Shown here piece after piece: positions 16,354 to 40,803 of a DNA stretch of 64,000 nt. Below the pieces are notes generated by a model. That model was given only the letters and a program-made list of their open reading frames with translations. It was not told the origin of the DNA and ran no database searches. Each line of letters begins with the position of its first letter. The stretch's first letter is position 1. Location of the stretch: the NCBI GenBank assembly GCA_049472315.1, contig JBLIRN010000015.1, forward strand, positions 2,598 to 66,597, in the 5' to 3' direction. The translations under genes were made by a program, and so were the position numbers. Origin of the DNA: a bacterium (GTDB taxonomy: Bacteria > SZUA-182 > DTGQ01 > JAFGSM01).

Positions 16354-19300
16354 ATGGGCAACGGGGGTAAAGGAAAGGGTTCCGATCGTAGTGAATTGAC
16401 TGCATTGTGCCGACGGGTCGCTGCACGCCAGGGTAACGTAGGGGCACGTCGACAGGCATTGAAGGAACACGAGGAGCCCCGCAGGCCTATCAATGAAGGA
16501 ATCCCCGTGTCGGGCATCGAGGATATCGCTGCACGACGGCAGGCCGAGGAGCGACTGAGGGTGAGCGAGGAAAAGTACCGCAGCCTGGTGGAGAACTCCA
16601 ACGACGGCATCTGTATCCTGCAGGACGGCGTGGTCAAATTCGCCAATGCGCATCTTGCCGGTCTTCTCGGGTACACCATGGAAGAGGGCATTGGCAGTTC
16701 CTTTCAGCGGTATGTGTCCCCTGAGGAATTGCCCAAGGTCCAGGAGAGATATGTCTCCCTGGTGAAAGGGGAGAAGGATGAGGCGCGTTTCGAGACCACA
16801 CTGGTGAGCAGGGATGGCCGACGCATCGAAACGGAGCTCAATATAAGTGTCACCTACTACGAGGGCCGCAGATCGATACTTGTTTTCATACGGGATATCA
16901 CCGAACGGCATAGGGCGGAGGAGGCCCTGCGGCAGTCGGAGCGGAAATACCGAGAACTGGTTGAAAACATAAACGATGTCATCTACCGTGTGGATGAAAG
17001 CGGCACCATAGCCTACGTGAGTCCAGCCGTCGAAATCATGTTGGGATACACCCCCGCAGAGGTCGTCAACCACTCCTTCGCCAGGTTTATATACCGGGAG
17101 GATCTGCCGCGGTGTATGAAAAATTTTCAGCATACCCTCGAGGGCAACGTCACCTCGGGAGAATACCGGGTAGTTACGAGAGCCGGATCGATCCGGTGGA
17201 TCAGGACATCCACCAGGCCGGTCATGCAGGGTGAGCGTGTTATTGCCGTAGAAGGGGTGTTGACCGATATCACCGAGAGCAGGGAGGCAGAGGAACTGCT
17301 CAGGGAAAGCGAGGAACGGTACCGTACATTCCTTCAGAATTTCCAGGGGATCGCCTTCCGCCAGCACTTCGATTTTGCCCCGGTTTTTTTCCATGGAAAC
17401 TGCGAAGGGATCACCGGATACCGGGAGAAGGATCTTACGGGCGGGAAGATCAGGTGGAATGACATCGTGCATCCCGAAGACCTCGCCATGTTCTATGAAA
17501 CCGGTATCAGGCTGCATGGAACCCCTGATCAGGCCATCGAGCGACAGTACAGGATTATACGCAAGGACGGGCGGGTTGTATGGGTGCATGAATTCATTCG
17601 GAATATCTGCAACCACAAGGGCAGGCCAGTCATGCTCCAGGGCTCCGTCTATGACATCACCGATCACAAACTGGCTGATCAGGCACTTCAACAGTCCCAA
17701 AACGAGCTGAGCATCCGAAACAGGATCGCCAACATCTTTCTCACCCTCTCCGATGAGGCGATCTATTCGGAAGTGCTCAAGGTGGTGCTCGATGCAGTGG
17801 AAAGCCCCCTGGGATATTTCGGATATATCGATGAAGGCGGGAACCTTGTGTGTCCCATGCTGTCCAGGCACATCCGGGAGCGCTGTCGCATGCCCGGGAA
17901 GGACATCCGGTTTCACAGTGAATCCTGGCGCGGATTGTGGGGCAAATCACTTGCAGAAAAGGGTTCCTTCATCATGAACACGCCTCTTACTGTCCCCGAG
18001 GGGCATCCCCCCATCAACCGGACCCTCATCGTCCCGGTTATTCACAAGGGTGAGGTGATCGGACAGATCGTCGCTGCCAACAGGGACCAGGATTACTCCG
18101 AGGCGGACCTGGGGCTTCTGGAAACCATTGCCCACAGCATCGCCCCCATACTCCATGCCCGGTTACAGGTTGAAAAACAGGAGAAGGAGCGCAGCAGGGC
18201 GGAGACGGAACTCTTCCTGACCAAGTCCCACCTGGAATACCTTCTTCGCTCAGTGCCCGCGGTCATTTACAGCCGCAAGGCGCATGAGGATTGGTCTCCC
18301 ACCTTTGTGAGCGAGAACATCCTCGCACAGATCGGGTATACCCAGGAGGACCTTCTTGCGGATCCCAAATTTTGGATCAATCACGTCCACCCGGAAGACG
18401 TTCAGAGAGTCCTCGTTGGTCTCGAACGGATCATCGATGAGGGGGTGCTGATTCACGAGTATCGGTTTCTTCACCATGATGGCGTATATCACTGGCTGCG
18501 GGACGATTGCAGGCTGGTGCGAGATGCTGCGGGGGCACCCCTTGAAATCGTCGGCTCCCTGATCGATATCACCGAGCACAAGCGTCTGGAGGAACAGTTT
18601 TATCATGCCCAGAAGATGGAGGCCATCGGGATTCTGGCAGGGGGAATTGCCCATGATTTCAATAACCTCCTGCAGGCCATCATGGGATATAGCGACTCCA
18701 TCCTTCTGGATGGTGATGATCCCCAGCAGCACATCCGGGATGTCGAGCAGATAAAGAAGGCGACCGCAAAGGCGGCCTCCCTCACCAGGCAACTCCTTGC
18801 ATTCAGCAGGAAGCAGTCGACTAATCCCGGATTGCTCGATATAAATGCGCTGATTTCGGACATGGGTGCGATGCTCGGGCGGATCATAGGAGAGGACATC
18901 GAGCTTACGGAGATGCTTCAGTCTGATTTGAGGAGTGTGAAGGGGGACCAGGGGCAGATGGAGCAGGTCATCATGAATCTCGTGGTGAATGCACGGGACG
19001 CCATGCCCAAGGGGGGAAGGCTTATCCTTGGTACGGAAAATGTCACGGTGAGGAAGGAGGACTGCCAGGGAATCCCCCATGCGGAACCAGGGGAGTACGT
19101 ATGCCTTTCGGTTGAGGATACAGGGACAGGCATCGACAGGCAGATTATGGATCGTATCTTCGAGCCGTTTTTCAGTACCAAGCATCAGGCGGAGGGTACC
19201 GGCCTGGGGCTTTCCACGGTTTACGGGATCGTCAAACAGCATGGTGGATGGATAACCGTCGAGAGTACCCTAGGAGAGGGGAGCAGGTTCAGGATCTACC

Positions 19301-19743
19301 TGCCCTGTTCCGATTTGAGTGCGAAGGATTCATGGCCGGAGACGGCATCGGTTGCCGATTTGAAGGGAAACGGAGAAAGGATCCTTATTGTGGAGGACGA
19401 GGTATCGGTGCGGGAGCTGGCCAAAAGGGCGCTCTGCAATGCAGGGTATGTGGTCTTTGACGCATCCTGTGTGCAGGATGCCTTGGGCATATTCGAAGGG
19501 GAGGGCGGGAGGTTCGATCTCGTGCTGAGCGACGTGGTCCTCCCTGATCAGAGCGGGCTCTTTTTGACCCGTTGCCTGAAAACCAACGCCGCTTCCTTGA
19601 AGATCATCCTGAGCAGTGGTTACACGGATGAGAAATCACAAAGCAAGATCATCCTGGAGGAGGGGATCGATTTTCTTCAGAAACCCTACACCCTGCGAGA
19701 ACTCCTTAAATGTGTAAAACATTCTATTCAGTCGCCCTCTTGA
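16354..19743 (+). CDS. hybrid sensor histidine kinase/response regulator with multiple PAS domains and a GAF-like domain
   Basis: Four or more PAS/PAC repeats (e.g. ERHRAEEALRQSERKYRELVENINDVIYRVD). HisKA H-box HKRLEEQFYHAQKMEAIGILAGGIAHDFNN. HATPase_c blocks (NLVVNARDAMPKGG, DTGTGID, GTGLGLS). C-terminal REC domain (ILIVEDEVSVRELAK...DLVLSDVVLP). Antisense ORFs 16243..17916 and 18250..19242 are rejected. Confidence 0.9.
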   Translation: MGNGGKGKGSDRSELTALCRRVAARQGNVGARRQALKEHEEPRRPINEGIPVSGIEDIAARRQAEERLRVSEEKYRSLVENSNDGICILQDGVVKFANAHLAGLLGYTMEEGIGSSFQRYVSPEELPKVQERYVSLVKGEKDEARFETTLVSRDGRRIETELNISVTYYEGRRSILVFIRDITERHRAEEALRQSERKYRELVENINDVIYRVDESGTIAYVSPAVEIMLGYTPAEVVNHSFARFIYREDLPRCMKNFQHTLEGNVTSGEYRVVTRAGSIRWIRTSTRPVMQGERVIAVEGVLTDITESREAEELLRESEERYRTFLQNFQGIAFRQHFDFAPVFFHGNCEGITGYREKDLTGGKIRWNDIVHPEDLAMFYETGIRLHGTPDQAIERQYRIIRKDGRVVWVHEFIRNICNHKGRPVMLQGSVYDITDHKLADQALQQSQNELSIRNRIANIFLTLSDEAIYSEVLKVVLDAVESPLGYFGYIDEGGNLVCPMLSRHIRERCRMPGKDIRFHSESWRGLWGKSLAEKGSFIMNTPLTVPEGHPPINRTLIVPVIHKGEVIGQIVAANRDQDYSEADLGLLETIAHSIAPILHARLQVEKQEKERSRAETELFLTKSHLEYLLRSVPAVIYSRKAHEDWSPTFVSENILAQIGYTQEDLLADPKFWINHVHPEDVQRVLVGLERIIDEGVLIHEYRFLHHDGVYHWLRDDCRLVRDAAGAPLEIVGSLIDITEHKRLEEQFYHAQKMEAIGILAGGIAHDFNNLLQAIMGYSDSILLDGDDPQQHIRDVEQIKKATAKAASLTRQLLAFSRKQSTNPGLLDINALISDMGAMLGRIIGEDIELTEMLQSDLRSVKGDQGQMEQVIMNLVVNARDAMPKGGRLILGTENVTVRKEDCQGIPHAEPGEYVCLSVEDTGTGIDRQIMDRIFEPFFSTKHQAEGTGLGLSTVYGIVKQHGGWITVESTLGEGSRFRIYLPCSDLSAKDSWPETASVADLKGNGERILIVEDEVSVRELAKRALCNAGYVVFDASCVQDALGIFEGEGGRFDLVLSDVVLPDQSGLFLTRCLKTNAASLKIILSSGYTDEKSQSKIILEEGIDFLQKPYTLRELLKCVKHSIQSPS

Positions 19744-21544
19744 GGCGATATCCCCCGTAGTACAATACCTCTTCACCCCTGTCATCGCGTAAGGCGCGAA
19801 TCGTCTCCCCCATGAAGCGGCCCAGCCCATGAATGACCGCCTCATCCTCTGAAATGGGATCGAGTGCCATGGTCATCTTGGTGTCCGGCATATGGTAGAG
19901 GAAGTACTCGATCAGGAGGAGGCCGTCCCTCTCGATGAGGCGAGGCTCCTTGAACAATTCCGCATCATCCCCCAGATTGGTGATATGGTAAGGTCCCAGC
20001 CGATCCAGCCAGGCGGGCGGGATGCTCACGGGCTGAATCTTTGGGCCGAGAAGATATCTCTTGTTGTTGCGAACGAGCGCCAGGAGTTGCCGTCCGTCGA
20101 TACGCTCGAACGTAAAGGTGATGCCTGCGAGCTGCTTGACCGTTAGGGGAAAGAGACCGAATACCCGATATTTCATGGAGTATAACCCGTTGGTCATGGG
20201 CACGAGATCATATACCTTGTCCCAGAGGTGGACCCGCCTTCGCTCCCCGCATGTGTCGACCGTCAGCACCCCCAGGCACGTGGCATAGGTCCCTGTCAAC
20301 TCCTGCTGCTCTTCGTCGGCCAGGGAGACGATGCCCGGTTCGTTGTTTTTCTCCGGTGACGGTTCCTTGATGCCGGTCTTCGTCTCCAGGGCGAGCATCA
20401 GCCCGGTGCGGGCGATTTCGTCAACCGCCTTTCTCACGGGCGCCATGATACTGTTGGCGATCACCACGATCCCCAGCTTGTGATCGAGCAGGGTGACCAT
20501 TTTGCTGTATGTGCCCAGGGTGGCCCCGCCATGTCCGGCTACGCGGCCGGCATAGGCAAGCCCCTCGTCGTCCAGCCACCAGCCGAGACCGATCCGGAAA
20601 TCCATATCCAGGGGTATCGCACTGTTCTGGCACCGGAGGATTTCCTGGAGCGTTTCCTGGCCAAGGATTGTTTCCCTTCCTGCAGTGCCTTCTGCAAAGA
20701 TCATGTTCATGAATCGGGCAAGATCTCTGACTGTGGTGTACAATCCTCCGGCAGGAACCTCGCGCAGCCTATAGGGATTCAGCTCTCGATCCCCCTCGTA
20801 CTCCTTTGCCAGAAAGGGCTTCAGCTCAGGGGACAAAGAAAACGCAGAATGCGTCATACCGAGCGGATCCAATACGCATTCCTCGATATACGACTCGTAG
20901 GGCGTCCCACTCACCCGCTCTATGGTCAGGCCAAGGAGCGAGAATCCGACGTTCGAATATGAGAACACGTAGTCGGGAGGATGGGCCGTGTATGCATCCC
21001 GTAGCATCTCGACCACCATCTCGTAGGGTCCCGGATGTTCGGTCCACATTCCCTTCATGATGTCGGAGGGGAGTCCCGAGTGATGGGTCATGAGGTTGCG
21101 GAGGGTTATGGCCTTTTCGCCTTGAAAACGCGTCTTAACTTGGAATTCAGGAAGACAGGTGTTCAGGGATTCATCGATGTCAAGCCTCCCCTGCTCGGCG
21201 AGATGCATGATCCCGGTGACGGTGAACACCTTGGTGATTGATCCGACCTGATAGATGGTCTCCTCCGTTGCCGCGATTTTACCGGAGACGTCGGCAAGGC
21301 CGAATCCCCTGGACCATACCTCCTCCTGGTCGTCCACGATGGCGATGCTGAGCCCCTTTATATTGTGTTTCTTCATCTTCTTCTCGATCTTCCACGTGAG
21401 ATATTCTCCCGTGTACGCATAATCATCGGTCAGGACGGGAGGCCTTGGGGGCTCCGATGAACAGCCTGAGAACACAAAAACGATGCAGACCAGCAGACAT
21501 AGGAACTGTAGAAAAATAGCGTGATCGCCCTTCGCTGTGCTCAT
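19724..21544 (-). CDS. serine hydrolase, beta-lactamase/transpeptidase-like family lipoprotein
   Basis: Lipobox FSGCSS. SxxK active-site motif VGSITKVFT. YSN-like motif FSYSNVGFSLLG. Extra C-terminal domain. Confidence 0.85.
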   Translation of the reverse strand: MSTAKGDHAIFLQFLCLLVCIVFVFSGCSSEPPRPPVLTDDYAYTGEYLTWKIEKKMKKHNIKGLSIAIVDDQEEVWSRGFGLADVSGKIAATEETIYQVGSITKVFTVTGIMHLAEQGRLDIDESLNTCLPEFQVKTRFQGEKAITLRNLMTHHSGLPSDIMKGMWTEHPGPYEMVVEMLRDAYTAHPPDYVFSYSNVGFSLLGLTIERVSGTPYESYIEECVLDPLGMTHSAFSLSPELKPFLAKEYEGDRELNPYRLREVPAGGLYTTVRDLARFMNMIFAEGTAGRETILGQETLQEILRCQNSAIPLDMDFRIGLGWWLDDEGLAYAGRVAGHGGATLGTYSKMVTLLDHKLGIVVIANSIMAPVRKAVDEIARTGLMLALETKTGIKEPSPEKNNEPGIVSLADEEQQELTGTYATCLGVLTVDTCGERRRVHLWDKVYDLVPMTNGLYSMKYRVFGLFPLTVKQLAGITFTFERIDGRQLLALVRNNKRYLLGPKIQPVSIPPAWLDRLGPYHITNLGDDAELFKEPRLIERDGLLLIEYFLYHMPDTKMTMALDPISEDEAVIHGLGRFMGETIRALRDDRGEEVLYYGGYRLKRATE

Positions 21545-22461
21545 GACATTCCCTCGATTGTTTGTATCTCGCAGAGGACACCGCGATGGTCGGATACCTG
21601 GTCTTCAAGGACTCTATAGGCAGTGAATTCCAGGTCCGAAGAGATCAGTACCCAGTCAAGCCTCTTTCCAAGCAAGGGAAAGGTCTCCATGCCTGCCTGG
21701 CGGGTCTGGTATCCCTTGAGCCGGCATTGTTCCGCAAGCATGTGCAGGGCTGAGTCCCTGGCCTGCCACTCACAGTTGAAATCGCCCATGACGATTGAAA
21801 TCCTGTTGCGGGAGGAGAGGCGGTCGATGAGGTCTTCCATCTGCCGTTGACGCACGGAATTGCGTGAAAAATCAAGGTGAAGGGAGATCACATCGATCTC
21901 TATTGCGGGATCTCCCGGCCATGTCACGGTGGCCACAACGAATCCCTTGGAAAGTGTGGGTGGGGAAGGGGAGAAGGTGACCGAAACGGGCTCTCTGAGG
22001 GGTATCCTGGACAGCAGCGCGGTGCCGTAGGAGAGCTTCATCCCCTTTACATGCTCTCCCCTCACCGAGTAAGGGAAACCCCCTTTATGGGCGAGATATT
22101 CCACCTGGTCCCTCATGCCGCTCCAGATCGACGGCCCGTCGGCCTCCTGAAGGGCGACGATATCAGGGGCTTCACGCCTGAGCACCGCCGCGATATCATC
22201 CAGATTGACCTGGATGTCGCGGCCTTTCTGAAATACCCGGTAGGCATCGTTTCCTCTCCCGTGGGCCATGTTCAACGTCATCAGCCTTAGGGAAGGAAGG
22301 CGAACATGATGCCCTGCCTCCGATAAGGGAATAGGCCCCTCGTGCTCGAACACCGCGGGCTGCATCACCCTGCTTCCACTCATCATCGGGGGCAGGGCAA
22401 AGGCGGAGGTGACCGCGAGAATGCCTAACGAAAAACAGAGAATACGTTTTCTCCTTTGCAT
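21541..22461 (-). CDS. endonuclease/exonuclease/phosphatase (EEP) family protein, secreted
   Basis: ORF 21541..22737. Probable start is MQRRKRIL at 22461, followed by a signal peptide. EEP motifs LRLMTLNMAHG, DIVALQEAD, MGDFN, SDHRGV. Four-nt overlap with the downstream serine hydrolase gene. Confidence 0.8.
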   Translation of the reverse strand: MQRRKRILCFSLGILAVTSAFALPPMMSGSRVMQPAVFEHEGPIPLSEAGHHVRLPSLRLMTLNMAHGRGNDAYRVFQKGRDIQVNLDDIAAVLRREAPDIVALQEADGPSIWSGMRDQVEYLAHKGGFPYSVRGEHVKGMKLSYGTALLSRIPLREPVSVTFSPSPPTLSKGFVVATVTWPGDPAIEIDVISLHLDFSRNSVRQRQMEDLIDRLSSRNRISIVMGDFNCEWQARDSALHMLAEQCRLKGYQTRQAGMETFPLLGKRLDWVLISSDLEFTAYRVLEDQVSDHRGVLCEIQTIEGMS

Positions 22462-22609
22462 AATCACATGTGATTGAAGGTGCGTGTGCGGTAAAATCTT
22501 GGTGACTGGCTGCGCAGTGACAGGAGCCGGATCTTTCCGGAAAGAATAATCCAGATCGGTCGCGTTGTCAATACGGATCCTTGCCTGTGTCAACGAGCGG
22601 ACCTTATGG

Positions 22610-22945
22610 TTAATAGGGTATCTTCTCAGCGGGCCTTCGCTCCGGCACATACCGGTGAGGGATCCTTCCCTCGTTCCATTCCTTGGATACATAGAGATTG
22701 CAGTAACAGCTCCCGTATTCCTCGACATCCGGGGCACGGTACTCGCAGGGGCAGATGATGTCCTTGTCCTTATCGCGATCTCCGGACGCGAGCCTGCACG
22801 GGCAGCACATGTATCCGTAGCGCTTCTTGTTTACCAGCAAGCCCTCCAGGAGCTCGAAGGTCCGCTGCCTATCCTTGTTAAAAAGGTATCCCTTGGGCTT
22901 CTGGACCCGTTTCAGCATCTCATGGAGTTTTTCGACGTCGCTCAT
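22610..22945 (-). CDS. ferredoxin-thioredoxin reductase catalytic subunit-like protein
   Basis: ORF 22610..23026. Likely start is MSDVEKLHE at 22945. FTR-type Cys pattern CCPCR...CPCEY...CYC (two CPC motifs plus CxC). Confidence 0.75.
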   Translation of the reverse strand: MSDVEKLHEMLKRVQKPKGYLFNKDRQRTFELLEGLLVNKKRYGYMCCPCRLASGDRDKDKDIICPCEYRAPDVEEYGSCYCNLYVSKEWNEGRIPHRYVPERRPAEKIPY

Positions 22946-30931: not shown

Positions 30932-32653
30932 CTATTTCCTTCTCAGGAGTCTCTTCACCTGTTTCCATGATCGGCTATTCAGGACGTCTTCCGGCTCCAG
31001 CCAGCCCCGCCGGGCCTGACCGACGCCGAAGGCCATGAAATCGAGGTCCCTGATGCTGTGGGCGTCCGTGGATATAACGATCTTCAACCCCTTCTCCTTG
31101 GCCATCTTGCAGTGGATGTCGTTGAGATCCAGCCGCACCGGATGGGCGTTGAGCTCAAGGAGGCACCCACGTTCCGCTGCCGCCTGCATGATCTTCTCCA
31201 TGTCCACCTCGTAGGGCGGGCGCTTCTTGATGAGCCTGCCGGTGGGATGACCGAGGATGGTGAAATACGGATTATCCATGGCCCGGATGATGCGCTTGGT
31301 CTGTTTTTGCCTGGAAAGCTTGGCATTGTAATGCACCGAGCAGACCGTGAGGTCGAGCTCCTTGAGGATGTCGTCCGGCAGGTCCAGGGAGCCATCCTCC
31401 AGGATGTCCACCTCAACCCCTTTCACAATAAAAAACGCCTTCTGTCTGCCATTCAATGCATCGATCTCCTTGATCTGCGTGGCAAGCGCCTTTTTGTCCA
31501 GGCCGTGCGCCATGGTCACCCGCTTGGAGTGCTCGGTGATCGCCATGTATTCGTAACCCCTCTCCTTGGCCGCCTTTACCATCTCCTCCAGGCTGAAGTG
31601 CCCGTCGGTGCGATTGGTGTGGGTGTGCAGGTCCCCCTTGATATGATCGAGGGTGATCAGGTCCGGCAGCCGTCCCTCCCGCGCCGCCTCCACCTCTCCC
31701 CGGCCTTCCCGAAGCTCCGGGGGGATAAAGGGAAGCCCCACCTGCACGAACACATCCTCCTCCCGTTTCCCGGCGATTCGCTTCTTTCCCTTGAATATGC
31801 CGTATTCGTTGATCTTGAGCCCCTTTTTTACCCCGATCTTCCGGATGGCGATGTTGTGGGCCTTCGACCCGGTGAAATAGTGGATGGCCGCGCCGTAGCT
31901 TTCCTGGGAAAACACCCGCAGATCCACCTGGGTCCCGGAGCGGAGTATCACCGTGGAGCGCATATCTCCGTGGGACACCACCGTGTCCACGTCCTCGTAT
32001 TTCACGAACCGATCCATGACCGGAGACCCCTTCGTGCAGGTCACCAGGATGTCCAGGTCCCCTACCGTTTCCTTGTGGCGCCGGTAGCTCCCCGCCACCT
32101 CGACATCCTTTACTCCGTCCACCTTCTGCAGGTAACTCCGGTAGTCCTCGGCGATCTCCCTGGCCACCAGCAGCCGTATGCGTCCCTTTTCCTCCTTGAC
32201 TCCCTGGATGCCCTCCAGTATGGACTGCTCCGTCTTTTCCCCGAACCCGGAGATCTCCCTGATCTTCCCATTCTCTGCCGCCTTCTTTAAATCGGAGATT
32301 GTGGTGATCCCCAGTTTCTCGTGGAGCGTCTTTACCCGCTTGGGACCCAGCCCGGCTATATTGAGCAGTTTGCTCAACGCGGGAGAAACCTCCTTTTTGA
32401 GATCCTCCAGGAGGGGAAGTTTACCGGTTTCCACGATCTCCTTGATCTTTCCGGCAAGGTCCTTGCCGATCCCCGACAGGCGTGAGAGGTCCTCGTTCTT
32501 TTTCACCATGTCAGCGGCGCTGGAGGAAAGGCCCCCTACCGTCCGGGCAGCGTCCCGATATGCACGAACCCGAAATGCGTTCTCCCCCTTGATCTCGAGA
32601 AGGTCCGCCACCTGGTTGAATATGGCGGCAATATCCGTGTTGTGAACAGGCAC
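30932..32653 (-). CDS. polX: DNA polymerase X family protein with C-terminal PHP phosphoesterase domain
   Basis: ORF 30932..32782. Likely start is the GTG at 32653, after a GGAGG RBS (MPVHNTDIAAIFNQVADLLEIKGENAFRVRAYR). Pol beta-like HhH and nucleotidyltransferase motifs (GSYRRHKETVGDLDILV). PHP motifs (HTHTNRTDGH, ITEH, TDAHS). Confidence 0.9.
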   Translation of the reverse strand: MPVHNTDIAAIFNQVADLLEIKGENAFRVRAYRDAARTVGGLSSSAADMVKKNEDLSRLSGIGKDLAGKIKEIVETGKLPLLEDLKKEVSPALSKLLNIAGLGPKRVKTLHEKLGITTISDLKKAAENGKIREISGFGEKTEQSILEGIQGVKEEKGRIRLLVAREIAEDYRSYLQKVDGVKDVEVAGSYRRHKETVGDLDILVTCTKGSPVMDRFVKYEDVDTVVSHGDMRSTVILRSGTQVDLRVFSQESYGAAIHYFTGSKAHNIAIRKIGVKKGLKINEYGIFKGKKRIAGKREEDVFVQVGLPFIPPELREGRGEVEAAREGRLPDLITLDHIKGDLHTHTNRTDGHFSLEEMVKAAKERGYEYMAITEHSKRVTMAHGLDKKALATQIKEIDALNGRQKAFFIVKGVEVDILEDGSLDLPDDILKELDLTVCSVHYNAKLSRQKQTKRIIRAMDNPYFTILGHPTGRLIKKRPPYEVDMEKIMQAAAERGCLLELNAHPVRLDLNDIHCKMAKEKGLKIVISTDAHSIRDLDFMAFGVGQARRGWLEPEDVLNSRSWKQVKRLLRRK

Positions 32654-32655
32654 CG

Positions 32656-33393
32656 TCAGCCTCCCTGAATCATGGATTGGAGCCGCAGGGCATTCCGAGC
32701 CGCATACCCTGCCTGGTCGTTGTCGAAATAGCAGTAGACGGTCCTTCCCCCCTTGGACCACGTGGAAAGGGCGCCCGCCCATCCGGCCAGTTCCTCTGTT
32801 TTGTATGATCCCTCATAAGGGCCTCCCGGGCCGTGGAGGCGGATATAGACGAAATCCGCAGTGATCTCCTTGGGTGATATGCTGCCGTTCAGGTCGAAGA
32901 TGCAGAAGGCGGCATTGCGTTTTTCCAGGGCGTGGTACACCCCTTCGTTGAACCAGCGGGGATCACGGAATTCGAAGGCATAGCGGTGGTTTACGGGCAA
33001 TGTATCGAGGAATGCATCCAGCCGCTCCAGGTTGGAACGCCATCGGGGGGGCAGTTGAAAAAGCACCGGGCCCAGTGTTGACCCCAGCGCCTCCACCCGG
33101 TCCAGAAAGGTGGACACCGGCTCCTTCGGGTCCTTGAGCCGCTTTATATGGGTGATGAAGCGACTCGCCTTGACCGCGAAGATGAACCCCTCCGGTACGG
33201 TTGTGCTCCATATCTTCAGTGTCTCCGTATCAGGGATCTGATAGAAGGTGTTGTTGATCTCCACCGTTCGGAAGCGATCGGCATAGTATTCCAGAAAGTC
33301 CCTGGATCGCATCTCCCGGGGATAGAAACTTCCCTTCCAGTGTTGATAGTGCCATCCTGATGTCCCGATATGTATGCTGCCCTTCCTGTTCAT
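32656..33393 (-). CDS. DUF72 (YecE-like) domain protein
   Basis: HIGTSGWHYQHWKGSFYP. TVEINNTFY. GPVLFQLPP. Stop abuts the polX start, suggesting translational coupling. Confidence 0.85.
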   Translation of the reverse strand: MNRKGSIHIGTSGWHYQHWKGSFYPREMRSRDFLEYYADRFRTVEINNTFYQIPDTETLKIWSTTVPEGFIFAVKASRFITHIKRLKDPKEPVSTFLDRVEALGSTLGPVLFQLPPRWRSNLERLDAFLDTLPVNHRYAFEFRDPRWFNEGVYHALEKRNAAFCIFDLNGSISPKEITADFVYIRLHGPGGPYEGSYKTEELAGWAGALSTWSKGGRTVYCYFDNDQAGYAARNALRLQSMIQGG

Positions 33394-33750: not shown

Positions 33751-34440
33751 TTACCTATCGGCGGGTTTGAGGAACGTACTCAGGTGGTCGTAGAGAACCG
33801 GAAGGAGAAAGAACAGCGCGAGTGAGATGAATGCGATCCATGCCTTCCATGAGAAGATGTCATCCGGACTTTTGATGTGTGCAAGCTGCTGGCCGGCAAA
33901 GGTGCAGATGAACGAACCGGGAAGTGCCCCTACCGATGTGGTCCACACGAAGGTCTTCAGGGGGATACCGGTGATGCCGGCAAGATAATTGATAAGGAAA
34001 AAGGGGAGAAGGGGAATCAGGCGCAGGCTCAGCATATAGTTGTGGCTGTGGTCGCGTATCCTTTCGTTGAACAATCGCAACTGGTCACGGAACCGGTGAC
34101 GAACCCATCCCCCTATCAGATACCGGGCGCTCAGGAAGGCCAGGGTCCCTCCTATCACCGTGGCAAGGTTGATATATATCATGCCAAGAATCACCCCGAA
34201 GAGGAAGCCTGCGGCTACGGAAAGGATCAGGGCGCCCGGCAGCAGGAAGGCGGTCATGATATACATAGCGATAAATGCAAGCAGGGAAGGAACATAGTGA
34301 CGATCCACGAATTCCTTGATCTTGGAGCGGTTATCCTTGAGCCTCTGGAAGGCCAGATCCTGGCCGGTCCTGGAGGTCCATACGAAAAAAATCGTCACTG
34401 CGACCAGGATGATTATGAGTCCGAGGGATTTGATTTTCAT
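33751..34440 (-). CDS. TVP38/TMEM64 (DedA/SNARE-associated) family membrane protein
   Basis: ORF 33751..34497. Likely start is MKIKSLG at 34440. Multiple TM helices. DedA core FLLPGALILSVAAGFLFG ... ARYLIG ... INYLAGITGIPLKTF. Confidence 0.8.
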   Translation of the reverse strand: MKIKSLGLIIILVAVTIFFVWTSRTGQDLAFQRLKDNRSKIKEFVDRHYVPSLLAFIAMYIMTAFLLPGALILSVAAGFLFGVILGMIYINLATVIGGTLAFLSARYLIGGWVRHRFRDQLRLFNERIRDHSHNYMLSLRLIPLLPFFLINYLAGITGIPLKTFVWTTSVGALPGSFICTFAGQQLAHIKSPDDIFSWKAWIAFISLALFFLLPVLYDHLSTFLKPADR

Positions 34441-34561
34441 GATACTGATACATCCTTCCCCAACATGCCATGCCAGCGCTGCCGATCCAATATACACGGT
34501 ATCACAGGAGGGTCAGCTGTAACAAGCAGTGCCTCTGCAATGCATGGGGGGGAAAAATCGT

Positions 34562-35311
34562 ATGAGCGAACCGACATTCAGGGTTATGACCTACAATGTC
34601 CACAGTTGCATCGGCAGTGACCGGAAGGCGTCGCCTTTGAGAACAGCCGAGGTGATCCGACAGCACTCCCCGGACATTGTGGCGCTGCAGGAGCTCGATG
34701 CGGGTCAGGAACGAAGCGGGGCGCAGTTTCAGGCCCATGTCATCGCACAGAGCCTGAATATGACCTATCGGTTTCATCCCTCCGACATTGTGGGAGGGGG
34801 AGAGTACGGAAACGCCATCCTGAGCCGCTTTCCCATCCGGTTGGTAAAGGCCGGGGATCTCCCCGGATATGTGTATTCCGGACGTGTCCCTGAGAAACGA
34901 GGTGCCCTATGGGTGGAGGTGTACCTGGCCGACCGGGGGGTGCAGGTCGTCACCACCCACCTGGGGCTTACCCGCAGGGAACGGCTGGTCCAGGCACACG
35001 CCCTGCTCGGCCCGCAATGGTTCAATCATCCGGAGTGCCGTTGCCCTCTGGTCATCACCGGCGATTTTAACGCACTCCCCTGTTCACAGGTATATCGTCT
35101 TTTCCGGCGGGTGCTGCGTGACATACAGTGCCACGGGGGAAACGGGAATCGACCCCGGAGTACATGGCCGAGCCGCTGTCCGGTATTTCGCATCGATCAT
35201 GTGTTTGTAACCCCGGACATCGTGGTGCATGGCGTACGGGTCCCCCGAACCAGGCTGGAGCGCACGGCATCGGATCACCTCCCGCTGGTTGCTGATCTGG
35301 GATTCTTGTGA
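34562..35311 (+). CDS. endonuclease/exonuclease/phosphatase (EEP) family protein
   Basis: ORF 34529..35311. Start is the ATG at 34562. EEP motifs FRVMTYNVHS, DIVALQELD, ITGDFN, SDHLPLVADL. Confidence 0.8.
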   Translation: MSEPTFRVMTYNVHSCIGSDRKASPLRTAEVIRQHSPDIVALQELDAGQERSGAQFQAHVIAQSLNMTYRFHPSDIVGGGEYGNAILSRFPIRLVKAGDLPGYVYSGRVPEKRGALWVEVYLADRGVQVVTTHLGLTRRERLVQAHALLGPQWFNHPECRCPLVITGDFNALPCSQVYRLFRRVLRDIQCHGGNGNRPRSTWPSRCPVFRIDHVFVTPDIVVHGVRVPRTRLERTASDHLPLVADLGFL

Positions 35312-35349
35312 TGTCGGGAGGAAAAAGTGCATGACCGGAGAGACCAATA

Positions 35350-37053
35350 ATGGAGAAAATTCTCGCCCCCGGGCGTAATTGCTGGGGAAACTTTCAGGTC
35401 CGGGATAGCGGGCTTCTCATTGACGGCCGCAACTATTACCGGGCCTTTTATCATGCCGCCCGGCAAGCGCAGCGCTACATCCTCATCGCCGGATGGCAGT
35501 TTGACAGTGACGTGCGGCTGCTTCGAGGCGCGGACGCGGCAGAGGCCGGCGGGGACGTGCGCCTGCTCCCCTTTCTCAAGGGGCTTTGCCGGGGTAACCC
35601 GGACCTCGCCATCTATATCCTGGCATGGGATTTCAGCATGCTCTTTTCCATAAAGCGCGAATGGTTTCAGGAGTGGATCTTCAACTGGACCACCAACCGG
35701 CAGCTTCGGTTTCGCTTCGACAGCAGGCATGCGGTGGGTGCCAGCCATCATCAGAAGTTCGTGGTGATCGACGGGGTGCTCGCATTCGTGGGTGGCTTTG
35801 ATATCTGCGCCGAGCGGTGGGATGATCGTGATCACCGGCCGGAGAATCCCGATCGCGTCAACAGTGCGGGCAAGGGGTATGAGTTGTATCACGATATACA
35901 GACCTATCACGTCGGGCCGGCGGCGATGAGGCTGACGGAGCTTTTCAAGGATCGATGGGCGCATTCCGATGGAGGAACGCTCGATCTGCCTCCCCCTCCC
36001 CGCGGGTATCATTTTGACGTGGAAGGGGGTATCGCCATTGCCGCCGACCGGGTCGCCATAAGCAGGACCCAGTCAAAAACCCTGGTGCCTGCCTGGAAAT
36101 CGATCCGTGAGATCCGCCGGCTTTTCACAGATGCCATCCATGGTGCGGAGCGGTTGATTTATATAGAGAATCAGTACTTCAGCTCCCAGGCTGTTTACCG
36201 GGCACTGCTCGACCGGATGCGGAAGACGAGTGGGGAATCCCTCCAGGTGATCGTCATCCTCCCCCAAAAACCCCATGCGCTGATCGAGGAGATTTCCCTG
36301 GGGATCGCCCAGATGAGCATGATCCATTCCCTTACGGAGGCGGCGGCCGGACAGGGGCATTCGCTGGGATTCTATTATCCTGCATCCGTATCGAGCAAGG
36401 ATACATCGGCTTCGGTATACGTGCATGCGAAGCTGCTTCTGGTTGACGACCGTTTTCTTACCGTGGGATCGGCGAACATCTCCAACCGGAGCATGGGGCT
36501 GGATACCGAGCTGAATGCCTCCTGGGAGGCAACAACCGGTGATCAGCGCGCAGTCATTCGTTCCATCCGGCGGACCAGGGTGAGCCTCCTCGCCGAACAT
36601 GCCGGTATAAAGTCCCGCCGGGACCTTCGGCGGTTGTGCCGCACGGATGGTATCGTTCGTTTCCTTGACGGTCTTGCGGATCGCCCCCGTTCGCCCCTGC
36701 GTCACCACACCACGGAGACCCTTTTCAAGAATGCATCATGGCTTGAGGAGATAAAGATCGAGGACCTTTCCCTGGACCCGGAGAGACCCATTGTGGAGGA
36801 GAACATCTACGAGCTTATCTCCCGGGACACCTCCGGCCTTTTCGCCAAGGGTATCACCCTGCTGCGTACAATGAAACGCGGACACCCCTCGAATTCCGAC
36901 GGGAAGCCCAGGCGGGGACGGCAATTCCACTTCCCGTTATGGGGGCGCTTTATGGACACTACCAGCCTCGTCGGTCATACCCGGCATTTAAAATGGATCA
37001 CCCTCTTCCTCATCATGCTCCTTGCGGCAGCGGTGGTTCTGTTACTCATGTGA
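35350..37053 (+). CDS. phospholipase D / cardiolipin-synthase-like protein (two HKD motifs) with C-terminal TM anchor
   Basis: HKD-1 HHQKFVVIDGVLAFVGGFDI. HKD-2 VHAKLLLVDDRFLTVGSANISNRS. C-terminal hydrophobic tail ITLFLIMLLAAAVVLLLM. Confidence 0.9.
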   Translation: MEKILAPGRNCWGNFQVRDSGLLIDGRNYYRAFYHAARQAQRYILIAGWQFDSDVRLLRGADAAEAGGDVRLLPFLKGLCRGNPDLAIYILAWDFSMLFSIKREWFQEWIFNWTTNRQLRFRFDSRHAVGASHHQKFVVIDGVLAFVGGFDICAERWDDRDHRPENPDRVNSAGKGYELYHDIQTYHVGPAAMRLTELFKDRWAHSDGGTLDLPPPPRGYHFDVEGGIAIAADRVAISRTQSKTLVPAWKSIREIRRLFTDAIHGAERLIYIENQYFSSQAVYRALLDRMRKTSGESLQVIVILPQKPHALIEEISLGIAQMSMIHSLTEAAAGQGHSLGFYYPASVSSKDTSASVYVHAKLLLVDDRFLTVGSANISNRSMGLDTELNASWEATTGDQRAVIRSIRRTRVSLLAEHAGIKSRRDLRRLCRTDGIVRFLDGLADRPRSPLRHHTTETLFKNASWLEEIKIEDLSLDPERPIVEENIYELISRDTSGLFAKGITLLRTMKRGHPSNSDGKPRRGRQFHFPLWGRFMDTTSLVGHTRHLKWITLFLIMLLAAAVVLLLM

Positions 37054-37071
37054 AAAGGGCAACCATCTGTT

Positions 37072-37242
37072 TCACCATTCTCTTTCAGGAACACCAAGAC
37101 GCTTCAGCCACCAGGTCATGCCCATGGCGGCAGCGGTGGTGACCATGATAACGGCCGCATGCAATGCGAATCCCAGAGGGGTGGCATTCCGGATAATCGG
37201 CCCTGCTGGAGCAGCATATACATGGGTATCACAGGAGGATAT
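37072..37242 (-). pseudogene. remnant of a DedA/TVP38 C-terminal end: degenerate copy of the 3-prime end of the PLD-DedA fusion gene
   Basis: Minus-strand frame reads ...AAPAGPIIRNATPLGFALHAAVIMVTTAAAMGMTWWLKRLGVPEREW*. The C-terminus of gene 38262..40394 reads ...ADRAGAIIRNPAPLEFVLLAAAIILTATAALGVVWWLKRLGVSGSER*. About 70% nucleotide identity over ~115 nt. No start codon; an in-frame stop lies upstream. Confidence 0.55.
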
Positions 37243-37455
37243 CCTTTAAGGCATGAATATGGAAGGGAATTTATAAAGGACACGTTAAGGTGGGGATTTT
37301 TATAATCTCACGAGGGGGACATGCAGGCTAATTTCAGTTCCATCAAAATCATTATCAGTGCCGGTTATGGTCAGATGGTGTTTTTCGGCTGCTACGTACT
37401 GCATTGCATTCTCTTGACAAGACCATGGCTATTCCATTTCCCCCGTATCAAGGAG

Positions 37456-37779
37456 TTAATAAAGCCCCAATTGAACCTTGATCGCCTCCCCGATCTTGAG
37501 CATGTCATCTTCAGAGAGAATCCCCGCAGGTTTAAAGAGCCGTAATTTACTCACCGTGGCCAGTTGATCGGCCATGGCCTTGCTTTCCCTGCCGTCAAAC
37601 ATGACAATCGCTTCACTTGGATATTGACGGCCTGTCTTACTCGTCAGGGGAACAACCTGAACGCGATTGAGGAATCTATTGGAGGCATCATTGCTGACGA
37701 TTACGGCAGGACGCCTTTTTTTGATCTCACCGCCCACGGAGGGATCAAAATTGACCCACCAGACCTCACCCCGCTTCAT
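37456..37779 (-). CDS. mazF: type II toxin-antitoxin system PemK/MazF family toxin (mRNA interferase)
   Basis: ORF 37456..37911. Start is the ATG at 37779 (MKRGEVWWVNFDPSVGGEIKKRRPAVIVSND...VVPLTSK). Classic MazF/PemK pattern. Confidence 0.85.
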   Translation of the reverse strand: MKRGEVWWVNFDPSVGGEIKKRRPAVIVSNDASNRFLNRVQVVPLTSKTGRQYPSEAIVMFDGRESKAMADQLATVSKLRLFKPAGILSEDDMLKIGEAIKVQLGLY

Positions 37780-37996
37780 GGGTGATGTCCCTGAAGGTGG
37801 CCTCTGCCCACTCCAAGGCCTCCTCTTCGCGCTTTTTGTCCTTTGACATTTGGGAATAGGCGGATTCCAGATTGGGGCGAACGACATGGGGACGCACGAG
37901 ATTTTCAACAAATTTGCTGATTCGACGAGGACCTATAACCTTATGAAGACCCTCGTAAACTTCCTCATCCACGGTTATGGTCAGCTTTTTCTGCAT
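37766..37996 (-). CDS. type II toxin-antitoxin system antitoxin (RHH/MazE-like), cognate of the downstream MazF
   Basis: 76-aa ORF. Overlaps the toxin start by 14 nt. N-terminal beta-strand KKLTITVDEEVYEGL is typical of ribbon-helix-helix or swapped-hairpin antitoxins. AGGAGG RBS. Confidence 0.7.
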   Translation of the reverse strand: MQKKLTITVDEEVYEGLHKVIGPRRISKFVENLVRPHVVRPNLESAYSQMSKDKKREEEALEWAEATFRDITHEAG

Positions 37997-38016
37997 GTCA
38001 GATCCTCCTTCACGTT

Positions 38017-38037
38017 TATACGTATAGTATACGTATA
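38017..38037. promoter_or_regulatory. candidate TA operator/promoter: two tandem copies of the 10-bp palindrome TATACGTATA immediately upstream of the antitoxin RBS
   Basis: TATACGTATA-G-TATACGTATA at 38017..38037. The RBS (RC AAGGAGG) is at 38003..38008 and the antitoxin start at 37996. Confidence 0.5.
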
Positions 38038-38261
38038 ATGCTGCATGATGTCAAATATGAATAACTTAAGAAAAAATACTCCATAACCTACCCATTGGAC
38101 CGACTTTTGGCGCATTCACGGCGAGGATGATACGGAAGGCCCGGCGTGCCGCTTGGTTTCCCACCACCGGTCGAGGTGAAACATACGGCTTGCATGAGAG
38201 AGGTTCAGCGATGTATTCATGGTGCCTGAGGGTGTTTGGAATGATTGCCGCTTTTACGATT

Positions 38262-40394
38262 TTACCGTTCACTTCCGGAGACACCGAGACGTTTCAGCCA
38301 CCACACCACGCCGAGGGCGGCAGTGGCGGTGAGTATGATCGCTGCGGCCAGCAATACGAATTCCAGGGGTGCGGGGTTGCGGATAATGGCCCCCGCCCGG
38401 TCTGCAACGATGGCAACAATCAGAAGACCCGGCAGCACACCGAGGATGGTGCCCGGCAGGAAATGGCGGAAACGGGTGTGTGATGCCCCGGCCACAAGAT
38501 TCACCAGTGTAAAGGACGCCACAGGCACCACCCGTACCGCCAGGACCGAACGCACCCCGTTTCGAGCGATGAGCCGGCTGACTATATTGAGCCGGGGACC
38601 GGCGATCCGCCGGATGATCCCCCGGCCGAGGAGGCGGCCAAGCCAGAAGGTGAACACGGCGCCTGCCAGTATCCCCGCATAGGCGTAAGCGAAACCGGTA
38701 AATGGGCCAAAAATCACCACGGTGGCCACGATGAGCAGGGTGACCGGCAGGGCGATAAGTGAGAAAACGGCGTATACGAGCATGACCCACAGGGACGTGA
38801 GCTTGGAGCTCCTGATTATTGCAGCAAGTTGTTTCAGGGCCTCCACGTCGATCCATTCCCCGAAAGGCGACCACCGCCAGGCGGCGACGAGCCCTGCAAC
38901 GGCTGCAAGAATGAGGGTGACCACAACGATGCGCTGCCTGGCGGAACGGCGGTGCTCGGAGGGAAGCATCTCCCGGGCCAGACGATCGGGATCGATGGGC
39001 ACCTCCGGATCGATAACCACCGCCTCGGGCACCATGGCGTCAACGGCAAGCGGGATGTCCGCAGGAATGGGCCCCATGCTCCGTTCGCCGCCCTGAAGCT
39101 GTTGAATTGCCCTGATCAGCGATCCGGTCCCCGAATGCACCTCTGCAACCCGTTCCGGGGTCGCCCCCAGGTGCTCGGCAAGAAGCCGGCAGCGCAGGCT
39201 GGCAATGGCTGCGGCATGGGTTTCGGTGAGGGCCTCCATGGCCAGATCGCACTCCGTGTCATATCCCATGGACCGGTTGTTGAGATTGGCCGAGCCTATG
39301 CGCACGAACCGGTCATCGACGATCATCAGCTTGCTGTGAAGATTGATCTGCGCTGCCTCCAGTGCCGCATGACGCGGATAGCACACCAGAAGTCTTTCCC
39401 GTTTATCCACCTCCCTCAACCTTTTGACGAGCCGTGCCCGCAACACCTCCATGGTCACCTCCTCCAGCCAGCCTCCTCCGGACAGGCGGGAGACAATGAC
39501 TACCTCCGGTCCTTTCGCCTCCTGCAGGCGCGTTGACAGTGCCTCTGCAATCTCCGCTGAGGTGAGGTATTGATTTTCGATATAGATGAACCGGCGGGCC
39601 GCGGCAATGGCGTCAAGGTAGAGCTGTTTCACCTCCCGCACCTCCGGGTGTTGTTTGTACCGGGGCTCGGTGCGGGCAATGGCCACCTCTGCATCGCGTA
39701 TATCCGGTGAAACCCCGGCGGGCCATGGATCAGGGCCTTCCGGGGCATGTGATGAGGGAGGCCGGTGGCCGGTGGCACGGCGCCACCGCTCCCCGGCCAG
39801 TTCACCCAGGGCGGCTGCGGCCTTCCCGTCGACCAGCATCTGTATGTCGTGAAAGGGCGGATAGGGGTTCCCTTGCGGATTGATACGGCGTGGGTCACCG
39901 GGGAGATGCTCGGGGGTGTCCCATCGTCCCCTGGTGAGATCCAGTCCCCCCACAAAGGCCACGGCATCGTCGATCACCACGATCTTCTGATGGTGGGACC
40001 CACCCACAGGATGGGCGGCGTCCAGGCGGAAGCGGAGTCTGGGATGGGAGGTCCATGCAGGCCGGAAAACGGGAAACAACTCGCGGTTGAATGCGTAGAC
40101 CATGGCAAAGTCCCAGTCCAGCAGATACACCTGAAGGTCCCTGCGCTGCGAGACCAGGGCGTCGAGGAATTCACCAAGCCGAACCGGCAGGTCGTCCTGA
40201 GGCGTGTCCCGCACCATTCGGACCTGGCTGTGCATATCCCAGCCGACGATGAATAGGGAACGCTGTGCACGGGCCGCTGCCTCCCTGAAGGCCGCGAAGT
40301 AGGATGCGCCGTCTATCAGAAAGGCCACCCTGTCCGACCTGAAGATACGCCAGCAGTTGCGGCCCGGACGAAGGATGCGGTCACTCATCTTCAT
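38262..40394 (-). CDS. phospholipase D-like (two HKD motifs) fused to a C-terminal DedA/TVP38 membrane domain
   Basis: HKD-1 HHQKIVVIDDAVAFVGGLDL. HKD-2 LHSKLMIVDDRFVRIGSANLNNRS. C-terminal ~230 aa with multiple TM helices and DedA-like pattern (FGPFTGFAYAYAGILAGAVFTFWLGRLLG...). Long antisense ORFs 38269..38874(-) and 38829..39536(+) are rejected. Confidence 0.9.
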   Translation of the reverse strand: MKMSDRILRPGRNCWRIFRSDRVAFLIDGASYFAAFREAAARAQRSLFIVGWDMHSQVRMVRDTPQDDLPVRLGEFLDALVSQRRDLQVYLLDWDFAMVYAFNRELFPVFRPAWTSHPRLRFRLDAAHPVGGSHHQKIVVIDDAVAFVGGLDLTRGRWDTPEHLPGDPRRINPQGNPYPPFHDIQMLVDGKAAAALGELAGERWRRATGHRPPSSHAPEGPDPWPAGVSPDIRDAEVAIARTEPRYKQHPEVREVKQLYLDAIAAARRFIYIENQYLTSAEIAEALSTRLQEAKGPEVVIVSRLSGGGWLEEVTMEVLRARLVKRLREVDKRERLLVCYPRHAALEAAQINLHSKLMIVDDRFVRIGSANLNNRSMGYDTECDLAMEALTETHAAAIASLRCRLLAEHLGATPERVAEVHSGTGSLIRAIQQLQGGERSMGPIPADIPLAVDAMVPEAVVIDPEVPIDPDRLAREMLPSEHRRSARQRIVVVTLILAAVAGLVAAWRWSPFGEWIDVEALKQLAAIIRSSKLTSLWVMLVYAVFSLIALPVTLLIVATVVIFGPFTGFAYAYAGILAGAVFTFWLGRLLGRGIIRRIAGPRLNIVSRLIARNGVRSVLAVRVVPVASFTLVNLVAGASHTRFRHFLPGTILGVLPGLLIVAIVADRAGAIIRNPAPLEFVLLAAAIILTATAALGVVWWLKRLGVSGSER

Positions 40395-40512: not shown

Positions 40513-40803
40513 TTACTTGAATCTGGACAGGGCCGACTTGACCGCCTCGCCCATGGAATCCCAGGCGCTCTCAACGCCTTCCTTGAGGTCCTCCCAGGCA
40601 TCCCCGCCGGCATCCTGAAGGGCCTTCAACCGTTCCTCCAGTTCCTTGCGTTTGGCCTGCAGATTCTCAATCTGCTCATGGAGCTTGATCTTCCTTTCGG
40701 CCTCCGCCTGATCCATCTTTGCCCTGAACTTGTCGATCTGGGCATTCCATTCGTCCAATTTGGCCTTCAACTGTGCCACATAGGCGTCCCTTTTTTCGCT
40801 CAC
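40513..40803 (-). CDS. hypothetical coiled-coil protein
   Basis: ORF 40513..40884. Likely start is the GTG at 40803, after an AGGAGG RBS (MSEKRDAYVAQLKAKLDEWNAQIDKFRAKMDQAEAERK...). Heptad-rich, about 96 aa. Confidence 0.5.
   Translation of the reverse strand: MSEKRDAYVAQLKAKLDEWNAQIDKFRAKMDQAEAERKIKLHEQIENLQAKRKELEERLKALQDAGGDAWEDLKEGVESAWDSMGEAVKSALSRFK

Follow-up and report, generated by a model that had tools for sequence, protein, structure and literature searches.

The closest described relatives of the locus analysed here, a cluster of phospholipase D (PLD), DedA and EEP-family phosphoesterase (EEP) genes within a 64,000-nucleotide (nt) stretch of bacterial DNA (that whole stretch is hereafter the window, to whose positions all coordinates refer), are the gene fusions catalogued by Roney & Rudner (PNAS 2023; PMC10193950). 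Figure 5 of that paper lists DedA domains fused to lysyl-phosphatidylglycerol synthase, to CDP-alcohol phosphatidyltransferase and to phospholipase D, and such domain fusions are used there to argue that DedA proteins are lipid transporters. The DedA-PLD fusions have the same PLD plus PF09335 architecture as one gene of the window, and the conclusion drawn from them, that an enzyme making or modifying lipids is coupled to translocation, equals our own. They serve there as supporting evidence only, and the passages of that paper devoted to them mention no EEP partner, no comparison of fused with split forms and no experiments. PLD fusions are not mentioned in the DedA subfamily survey of Todor et al. 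The initial annotation of the window had presented the gene combination as not yet characterised as a system; our literature search indeed found no paper characterising a PLD-DedA protein, but the fusion itself was already on the list of Roney & Rudner.

A second parallel is the Escherichia coli K-12 operon in which ybhP (an EEP gene), clsB (a PLD-superfamily cardiolipin synthase) and ybhN, or pplT (PF03706, MprF-flippase-like), follow one another with overlaps of 4 nt and 1 nt. The same three roles (phosphoesterase, two-HKD lipid enzyme and putative translocase) recur in the modules of the window, the order EEP then PLD is that of the unfused module, and an operon with a PLD gene is the context common to YbhP and the EEP of the window. 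PplT is reported to interact with ClsB (bioRxiv 10.1101/2022.03.11.483950), and our literature search on YbhP found no assigned function. The components differ in kind. The PLDs of the window are of the eukaryotic type and not ClsB equivalogs (23% identity between the unfused PLD1 and E. coli ClsB, E 3e-7), and their membrane partner is a DedA/VTT protein, for which no similarity to YbhN was found. Membership in the cardiolipin synthases (ClsA/ClsB) was considered and rejected: PLD1 reaches 46.4 bits against a curated cut-off of 290 for TIGR04265 and 44.2 against 281 for NF008427, and the fusion 38.3 and 36.5 bits against the same two cut-offs, so that ClsB is an analogy only. MprF, which joins a cytoplasmic lipid-modifying domain to a translocating membrane domain in one polypeptide, is likewise a conceptual analogue only. 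It combines an aminoacyl-phosphatidylglycerol synthase with a PF03706 flippase and has no EEP partner, whereas the fusion in the window combines an HKD-type PLD with DedA, and a Pfam scan found neither PF03706 nor a synthase domain in the window proteins.

Here we report that the region is, on balance, probably best understood as two paralogous membrane-phospholipid modules, each built from a eukaryote-type PLD and a TVP38/YdjX-type DedA protein and, in its canonical form, a soluble EEP. In the first module these are separate genes; in the second, PLD and DedA form one polypeptide that has no EEP of its own. The parts are as follows.

33751..34440, minus strand: DedA1, 229 amino acids (aa), a stand-alone TVP38/YdjX-type VTT membrane protein divergent from EEP-PLD1 (VTT_dom E 1.5e-24)
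34441..34561, between strands: the 121-bp divergent DedA1/EEP intergenic region, presumed from its sequence to hold the promoters of both units
34562..35311, plus strand: EEP, 249 aa, a soluble metal-dependent phosphoesterase (Exo_endo_phos E 3.6e-29)
35350..37053, plus strand: PLD1, 567 aa, an unfused two-HKD eukaryote-type PLD with a C-terminal transmembrane (TM) tail (PLDc + PLDc_2)
38262..40394, minus strand: the PLD::DedA fusion, whole gene, 710 aa, with two HKD motifs and VTT_dom
38262..38954, minus strand: the DedA half of the fusion, residues 481-710, a TVP38/YdjX-type VTT domain with TM helix 488-506 before it
38955..40394, minus strand: the PLD half of the fusion, residues 1-480, a predicted cytoplasmic two-HKD eukaryote-type PLD (PLDc E 1.3e-19, PLDc_2 E 3.9e-14)

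The genes and domains named in the initial annotation were all recovered in the open reading frame (ORF) list, by Pfam and NCBIfam profiles and by motif scanning. DedA1 starts at the ATG at 34440, the start also picked by gene callers, and 38 nt separate EEP from PLD1. Contigs of two independent sequencing runs agree on this arrangement, including a toxin-antitoxin (TA) cassette between PLD1 and the fusion, and the region is therefore not an assembly artefact. PLD1 and the PLD half of the fusion are paralogues (37% identity over 485 aa, E 8e-84), and DedA1 is 27% identical to the DedA half. Promoter-like matches in the DedA1/EEP intergenic region are weak; a promoter and terminator scan of the whole cluster gave counts no higher than the shuffled expectation, and its only near-consensus site lies upstream of the antitoxin gene mazE.

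Both membrane domains belong to the DedA family. VTT_dom (PF09335) scores 87.2 bits in DedA1 and 80.5 bits in the fusion against a cut-off of 33.9, and spans residues 549-663 of the fusion (E 1.9e-22). Compared with a reference of three E. coli proteins only, both lie closer to YdjX/YdjZ (COG0398) than to YqjA (COG0586): phmmer matched DedA1 to YdjX at 1.7e-14 and to YdjZ at 5e-13, with no significant match to YqjA, and the DedA half of the fusion to YdjZ at 8e-17 and YdjX at 1.8e-16, with none to YqjA. Judged by sequence, both are thus members of the COG0398/TVP38/YdjX branch and not YqjA-type proteins. The TVP38/YdjX-type clade includes the eukaryotic scramblases TMEM41B and VMP1, and the COG0398 branch that these share with Tvp38, YdjX and YdjZ is the one to which DedA1 and the fusion half are assigned (E 1e-13 to 1e-17). 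In the AlphaFold2 model of the fusion the DedA half is all-helical, and it contains hydrophobic segments; by its VTT_dom and phmmer matches, this C-terminal part is a true DedA/VTT domain, as first annotated, and not an unrelated region of multiple TM segments.

The catalytic halves carry intact PLD active sites. HKD (HxKxxxxD) motifs lie at H134 and H359 in PLD1 and at H135 and H353 in the fusion, where H135, K137, D142, H353, K355 and D360 are invariant across 52 homologues; PLDc (PF00614) passes its gathering score of 21.9 with 69.7 and 49.4 bits, and both proteins contain an IYIENQY(F/L) motif. Sequence comparison places the fusion closest, among solved structures, to human PLD2 (E 1.2e-21), human PLD1, plant PLDalpha1 and 7v53, a 1,099-residue PLD named Pseudomonas aeruginosa PldA in the fold search. 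A fold search with the AlphaFold model of the fusion (mean predicted local distance difference test score, pLDDT, 79.6) returned the same set followed by Streptomyces PLDs, the top 45 matches all being lipid-acting PLDs. Sequence and fold therefore agree with the original description of both domains as lipid-type PLDs.

The eukaryotic PLD1/PLD2, plant PLDalpha and P. aeruginosa PldA (Tle5), the closest solved relatives (sequence E 1e-21 to 1e-14, fold E 6e-21), have the two HKD motifs and the IYIENQY(F/L) motif in common with the PLDs of the window. Unlike them, the window PLDs lack PX/PH, C2 and secretion-related domains; their membrane anchor is a DedA domain or a TM tail (the hydrophobic C-terminal residues 549-567 of PLD1), and their genes share an operon with that of an EEP. 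Hydrophobic segments are missing from the N-termini of both PLDs and of the EEP, which also lacks a signal peptide and any TM segment, and the first TM segment of the fusion (488-506) is preceded by the basic stretch HRRSARQR. On these grounds the catalytic domains are predicted to face the cytoplasm.

The EEP belongs to its superfamily by a wide margin (PF03372, 102.5 bits against a cut-off of 24.5). Residues N12, E44, H133, D168, N170, D212, D238 and H239 are invariant across 39 homologues, and this set of Asn, Glu, Asp and His sits at the expected EEP active-site positions. The AlphaFold2 model is a confident EEP fold (pLDDT 94) whose top Foldseek matches are all EEP enzymes. The nearest of these are generic small EEPs, with Nocturnin, TDP2 and structural-genomics entries first, and the substrate therefore cannot be read from the fold. 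A full-length pairwise alignment with E. coli YbhP gave 27% identity (E 2e-21), and the median identity of YbhP to the EEPs of the surveyed loci is 28-30%. A second EEP-domain protein is encoded about 12 kb upstream of the cluster (21541..22737, minus strand; 398 aa with an N-terminal extension of about 150 residues); it is 27% identical to the EEP of the cluster, and its gene overlaps by 4 nt with that of a 606-aa beta-lactamase-family serine hydrolase (19724..21544, minus strand).

The fusion is not rare. When its sequence was searched against 5.8 billion proteins, 7,749 of the 8,000 candidates scored matched at E <= 1e-5, and the best 120 matches all combine PLDc, PLDc_2 and VTT in about 700-760 aa, apart from one protein of 830 aa and one partial sequence. 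Thousands of database proteins thus share the PLDc plus VTT architecture. Relatives are encoded at no fewer than 566 loci in species-representative genomes, from which we kept 80 as a genome set; these come from Desulfobacterota, many Gammaproteobacteria, Nitrospinota, Nitrospirota, Myxococcota and Burkholderiales. The fusion is a recognised but uncharacterised family, and the genes of the window are ordinary members of large catalogued families.

What many of these loci have in common is the EEP. When the window proteins were compared with all ORFs of the genome set, an EEP homologue was found in 55 of the 80 loci, almost always directly downstream of the fusion and on the same strand, commonly with gaps of -4, -1, 0 or +1 nt and often with an overlap of 1-4 nt. 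A second, independent set, 80 metagenome loci retrieved with PLD1 as query (48 fused and 29 with a PLD1-like unfused gene), gave the same EEP pattern for its fused genes. Of the 112 fused loci whose downstream sequence extends for 800 nt or more, 72 have the EEP immediately downstream on the same strand and 83 have one at any position in the flank; from this we take the canonical unit to be PLD::DedA followed by EEP. The initial annotation had treated the EEP as one neighbour among several; de novo clustering of the roughly 1,070 ORFs of the 80 genome loci found no other family in more than eight loci, leaving the EEP as the sole conserved partner of the fusion. Recurrence in the genome and metagenome loci, in Geomonas and in Nitrospirota also establishes that the linkage is conserved in unrelated genomes. 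EEPs that accompany fused PLDs are more similar to each other (median identity 42.6%) than to those of unfused PLDs (33%), which lends weak support to co-divergence of the EEPs with their partner PLDs. At four loci, L050, L051 and L059 (Candidatus Thiodiazotropha) and L048 (Desulfobacula), the EEP does not follow the fusion directly but is encoded 1.3-2 kb further downstream, on the other strand.

The gene upstream of the fusion in the window was compared with the same loci:

40513..40803, minus strand: sll1863-family small coiled-coil stress protein, 96 aa (gene caller), upstream of the fusion (NCBIfam sll1863_fam E 2.4e-35)

Homologues of this protein occur in 9 of the 80 fusion loci, in eight of them about 570 nt upstream of the fusion. 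The association is weak, and it is doubtful that the protein is a member of the module.

The unfused PLDs, PLD1 among them, are a widespread family in their own right, about 500-575 aa long, and their neighbours vary in order. The arrangement of the window, DedA1 on one strand and EEP followed by PLD1 diverging from it, is also that of metagenome locus L088; in L109 the genes run DedA, PLD, EEP in one direction, and in L094 and L099 the PLD converges on an EEP preceded by DedA. The cultured Geomonas silvestris has exactly the layout of the window, with the VTT gene on the minus strand and a 4-nt overlap between EEP and PLD, and Nitrospirota metagenome-assembled genomes have a similar layout with one to three small genes in between.

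A direct connection between PLD1 and DedA1 is provided by P0144, a 755-aa protein from a Logan assembly (contig of 45,193 nt) in which a PLD1-type PLD (57% identity) is fused to a DedA1-type DedA, the latter being 43% identical to DedA1 and 30% to the DedA half of the window fusion. The single TM helix at its junction aligns both with the C-terminal TM tail of PLD1 and with the first TM segment of DedA1; these alignments would be compatible with a history of either fission or fusion, the composition of TM segments being too simple for proof. P0144 appears to be a second, independent fusion, and PLD-DedA fusion accordingly appears to have arisen, or split, more than once.

Because fusion of the two genes is both widespread and, as P0144 indicates, repeated, we propose that PLD and DedA are functionally coupled. 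From domain identities, intact catalytic motifs, predicted topology and conserved linkage and fusion, we infer a mechanism of three steps. The PLD domain would act first, on a glycerophospholipid of the cytoplasmic leaflet, whose head group it would cleave off or exchange by way of a covalent phosphatidyl-histidine intermediate, as HKD enzymes typically do. The tethered or adjacent DedA would then move the substrate or product lipid between leaflets, which might keep the reaction supplied and avoid an imbalance between the leaflets, or might bring the new lipid to the outer leaflet. Finally, the EEP may pull the reaction forward by phosphoester hydrolysis, with either the released head group or a phosphorylated lipid intermediate as its substrate.

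Several observations weigh against this proposal. An alternative proposal for DedA proteins is ion-coupled transport, and according to the discussion in Roney & Rudner (PMC10193950) scramblase activity has been demonstrated for eukaryotic VTT members only; the bacterial members of COG0398 are not known to have any activity. Our literature search found no biochemical or genetic data for any member of the fusion family. In the AlphaFold2 model the linker has a pLDDT of about 52-69 and the predicted template-modelling score is 0.68, leaving the relative orientation of PLD and DedA uncertain. No sphingomyelinase or inositol 5-phosphatase is among the top 50 fold matches of the EEP. Nor is the EEP obligatory, however frequent, as about a quarter of the fused loci have none in the flank, the window fusion itself has no adjacent one, and only 8 of the 23 unfused PLD1-type metagenome loci with upstream sequence have one in theirs.

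The same enzymes might instead serve catabolism, with PLD and EEP breaking down membrane phospholipids, for example to obtain phosphate or head groups under starvation, as in PlcP-type remodelling. DedA would then feed outer-leaflet lipid to the cytoplasmic enzymes, and hydrolysis to phosphatidic acid and head group would be followed by hydrolysis of the phosphoester, with no synthesis of new lipid. A PLD and a phosphoesterase are plausible as a two-step degradative pair, the solved structures nearest to the PLDs (human PLD1/2, plant PLDalpha and P. aeruginosa PldA) belong to enzymes that mainly hydrolyse, and a phosphate-scavenging role fits the homology equally well; the sll1863-family stress protein upstream of the fusion in the window and at 9 of the 80 loci would also suit it. 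Homology does not decide between hydrolysis and exchange, because HKD enzymes of this type also carry out transphosphatidylation. Evidence for regulation by phosphate did not emerge: the regions upstream of 74 fusion genes show no enrichment of Pho-box-like sites (mean best match 8.78, controls 8.82; a weak test that used the E. coli consensus only), and the neighbour clustering of the 80 loci found no conserved phosphate-regulon genes nearby. We consider a catabolic role unlikely and continue to favour remodelling coupled to translocation.

The occurrence of both modules side by side has a different standing. The initial annotation had taken the second, unfused pair near the fusion as a suggestive part of one system, a view that the comparison does not bear out. 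Among the 80 genome loci, a second PLD near the fusion is found only at L001, an 86%-identical relative, and 78 have no additional PLD or DedA there; the remaining locus, L003, has one PLD- or DedA-like ORF about 7.5 kb away. That a fused and an unfused module stand next to each other is thus lineage-specific, and the region is two paralogous modules rather than one conserved six-gene system.

The stretch that separates them contains three features.

37070..37206, minus strand: DedA-type gene-end relic, about 45 codons plus stop, the truncated 3' end of a second PLD::DedA-type gene
37456..37779, minus strand: MazF/PemK-type toxin, 107 aa (gene caller, two independent contigs; PemK_toxin E 1.1e-26)
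37766..37996, minus strand: MazE-like antitoxin, 76 aa, with a 14-nt overlap with mazF (TA_MazE_antitoxin E 1e-4)

Downstream of the window fusion, where an EEP would normally stand, there is thus the MazEF cassette and then the 137-nt relic. The relic forms a direct repeat with positions 38260-38396, the 3' end of the fusion (74% nt identity), and its translation (...AGPIIRNATPLGFALHAAVIMVTTAAAMGMTWWLKRLGVPEREW, followed by a stop) matches the C-terminus of the fusion; the corresponding tblastn match covers 37078-37221 at 56% aa identity. Relic and intact gene end bracket MazEF, which points to an insertion or gene replacement between the convergent PLD1 and fusion genes. The toxin is well supported (PemK_toxin 93.6 bits against a cut-off of 23.1) and the MazE match is weak (22.6 bits against 65), yet a toxin gene with a small overlapping ORF upstream is a typical type II TA pair. 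MazEF is inserted cargo and lies outside the lipid module. L001 has the same convergent arrangement of PLD1 and fusion with other cargo, minus-strand ORFs of 164 aa and 1,121 aa (L001:1749-6491); with different cargo at the same place, the gap has been rearranged more than once and seems to be a recurrent insertion site. Just upstream of mazE (38019..38054, minus strand) are a near-consensus sigma-70-like promoter (TTGACA-17-TATACT, 11/12) and a palindrome-like stretch, acgtatagtatacgtat, which to judge from their sequence and position are probably the promoter and operator of the TA cassette itself.

These findings bear on whether the two modules interact at all. Their adjacency could be an accident of duplication or horizontal insertion, the modules being independent or one of them redundant, and we regard the chances of this as evenly balanced. 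The near absence of such pairs from the other loci favours it, as do the modest identities between the paralogues (37% for the PLDs and 27% for the DedA domains, in separate widespread families) and the relic and TA cassette that come between them. On the other side, the fusion, having no EEP of its own, might use that of the first module. Independence of this kind is compatible with the two-module explanation and argues only against a single system.

The mobile surroundings also raise the question of a conflict system, an anti-phage or toxin-like module of PLD::DedA and EEP that travels with mobile cargo, the PLD damaging membranes or nucleic acid and the EEP acting as a nuclease. We consider this highly improbable. 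The two-gene operon does occur in non-conserved neighbourhoods across phyla, the window copy adjoins a TA cassette, L001 has different cargo at the same place, and the relic indicates rearrangement at the spot; PLD and EEP folds are moreover found in nucleases and defence systems. But PADLOC returned nothing for DedA or EEP and only short HKD-local DrmC matches for the PLDs (27-36 bits over about 40 residues), and the NCBIfam DrmC profile (NF038319) gave 35.5 and 32.1 bits against a cut-off of 133. The PLDs are nearest to lipid PLDs and not to nucleases of the Nuc or DrmC type, the flanks of the G. silvestris triad (an M17 peptidase, a Fapy DNA glycosylase and a thiamine pyrophosphate-dependent enzyme) look like ordinary housekeeping genes, and in E. 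coli the analogous ybhP-clsB-ybhN genes form a core lipid operon. DrmC membership of DISARM was accordingly rejected, as was a defence or toxin function as the main explanation, the matches being sub-threshold and HKD-local with no DISARM partner genes nearby.

The cluster is adjoined by genes for a PolX-family DNA polymerase with a PHP domain (30932..32782, minus strand) and a DUF72 protein (32656..33393, minus strand), neither of which accompanies the lipid genes elsewhere as a conserved neighbour; because the longest ORFs of the two share 127 nt, the true PolX start is probably an internal codon. A large hybrid sensor kinase (16354..19743, plus strand; 1,129 aa), which combines several PAS domains with GAF, HisKA/HATPase and a receiver domain, has no evident link to the lipid modules.

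To the fusions already catalogued we add a conserved EEP partner, the occurrence of two paralogous families in fused and split form with one copy of each in the window, and the parallel with ybhP-clsB-ybhN; within the limited scope of our literature search, neither the EEP partnership nor this parallel was found stated. The parallel invites a broader suggestion, which we offer tentatively and think more doubtful than not: PLD, lipid translocase and EEP could together be a unit of three components, general among bacteria, that makes or remodels a membrane lipid and has come together on no fewer than two occasions with translocases unrelated to each other, DedA in the window and the surveyed loci, PplT/YbhN in Enterobacteriaceae. 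If so, the EEP (YbhP family) would supply a missing step, such as removal of phosphate from a phosphorylated head group or lipid intermediate, on a path to an anionic phospholipid that does not depend on CDP-diacylglycerol, and the fusion would by its own make-up allow a lipid substrate to be assigned to a bacterial DedA scramblase of COG0398.

The movement of phospholipids between bacterial leaflets and the cargo of most DedA proteins are open questions, and a DedA domain tied to a recognisable lipid enzyme narrows the search for its substrate. The tight and widespread pairing with the EEP is a testable lead on E. coli YbhP and may bear on the poorly understood role of ClsB. With both split and fused versions in the window, and the split layout also in the cultured Geomonas, natural constructs for such experiments are at hand. 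These findings overturn nothing; they sharpen a testable hypothesis on the substrates of DedA proteins and on YbhP.

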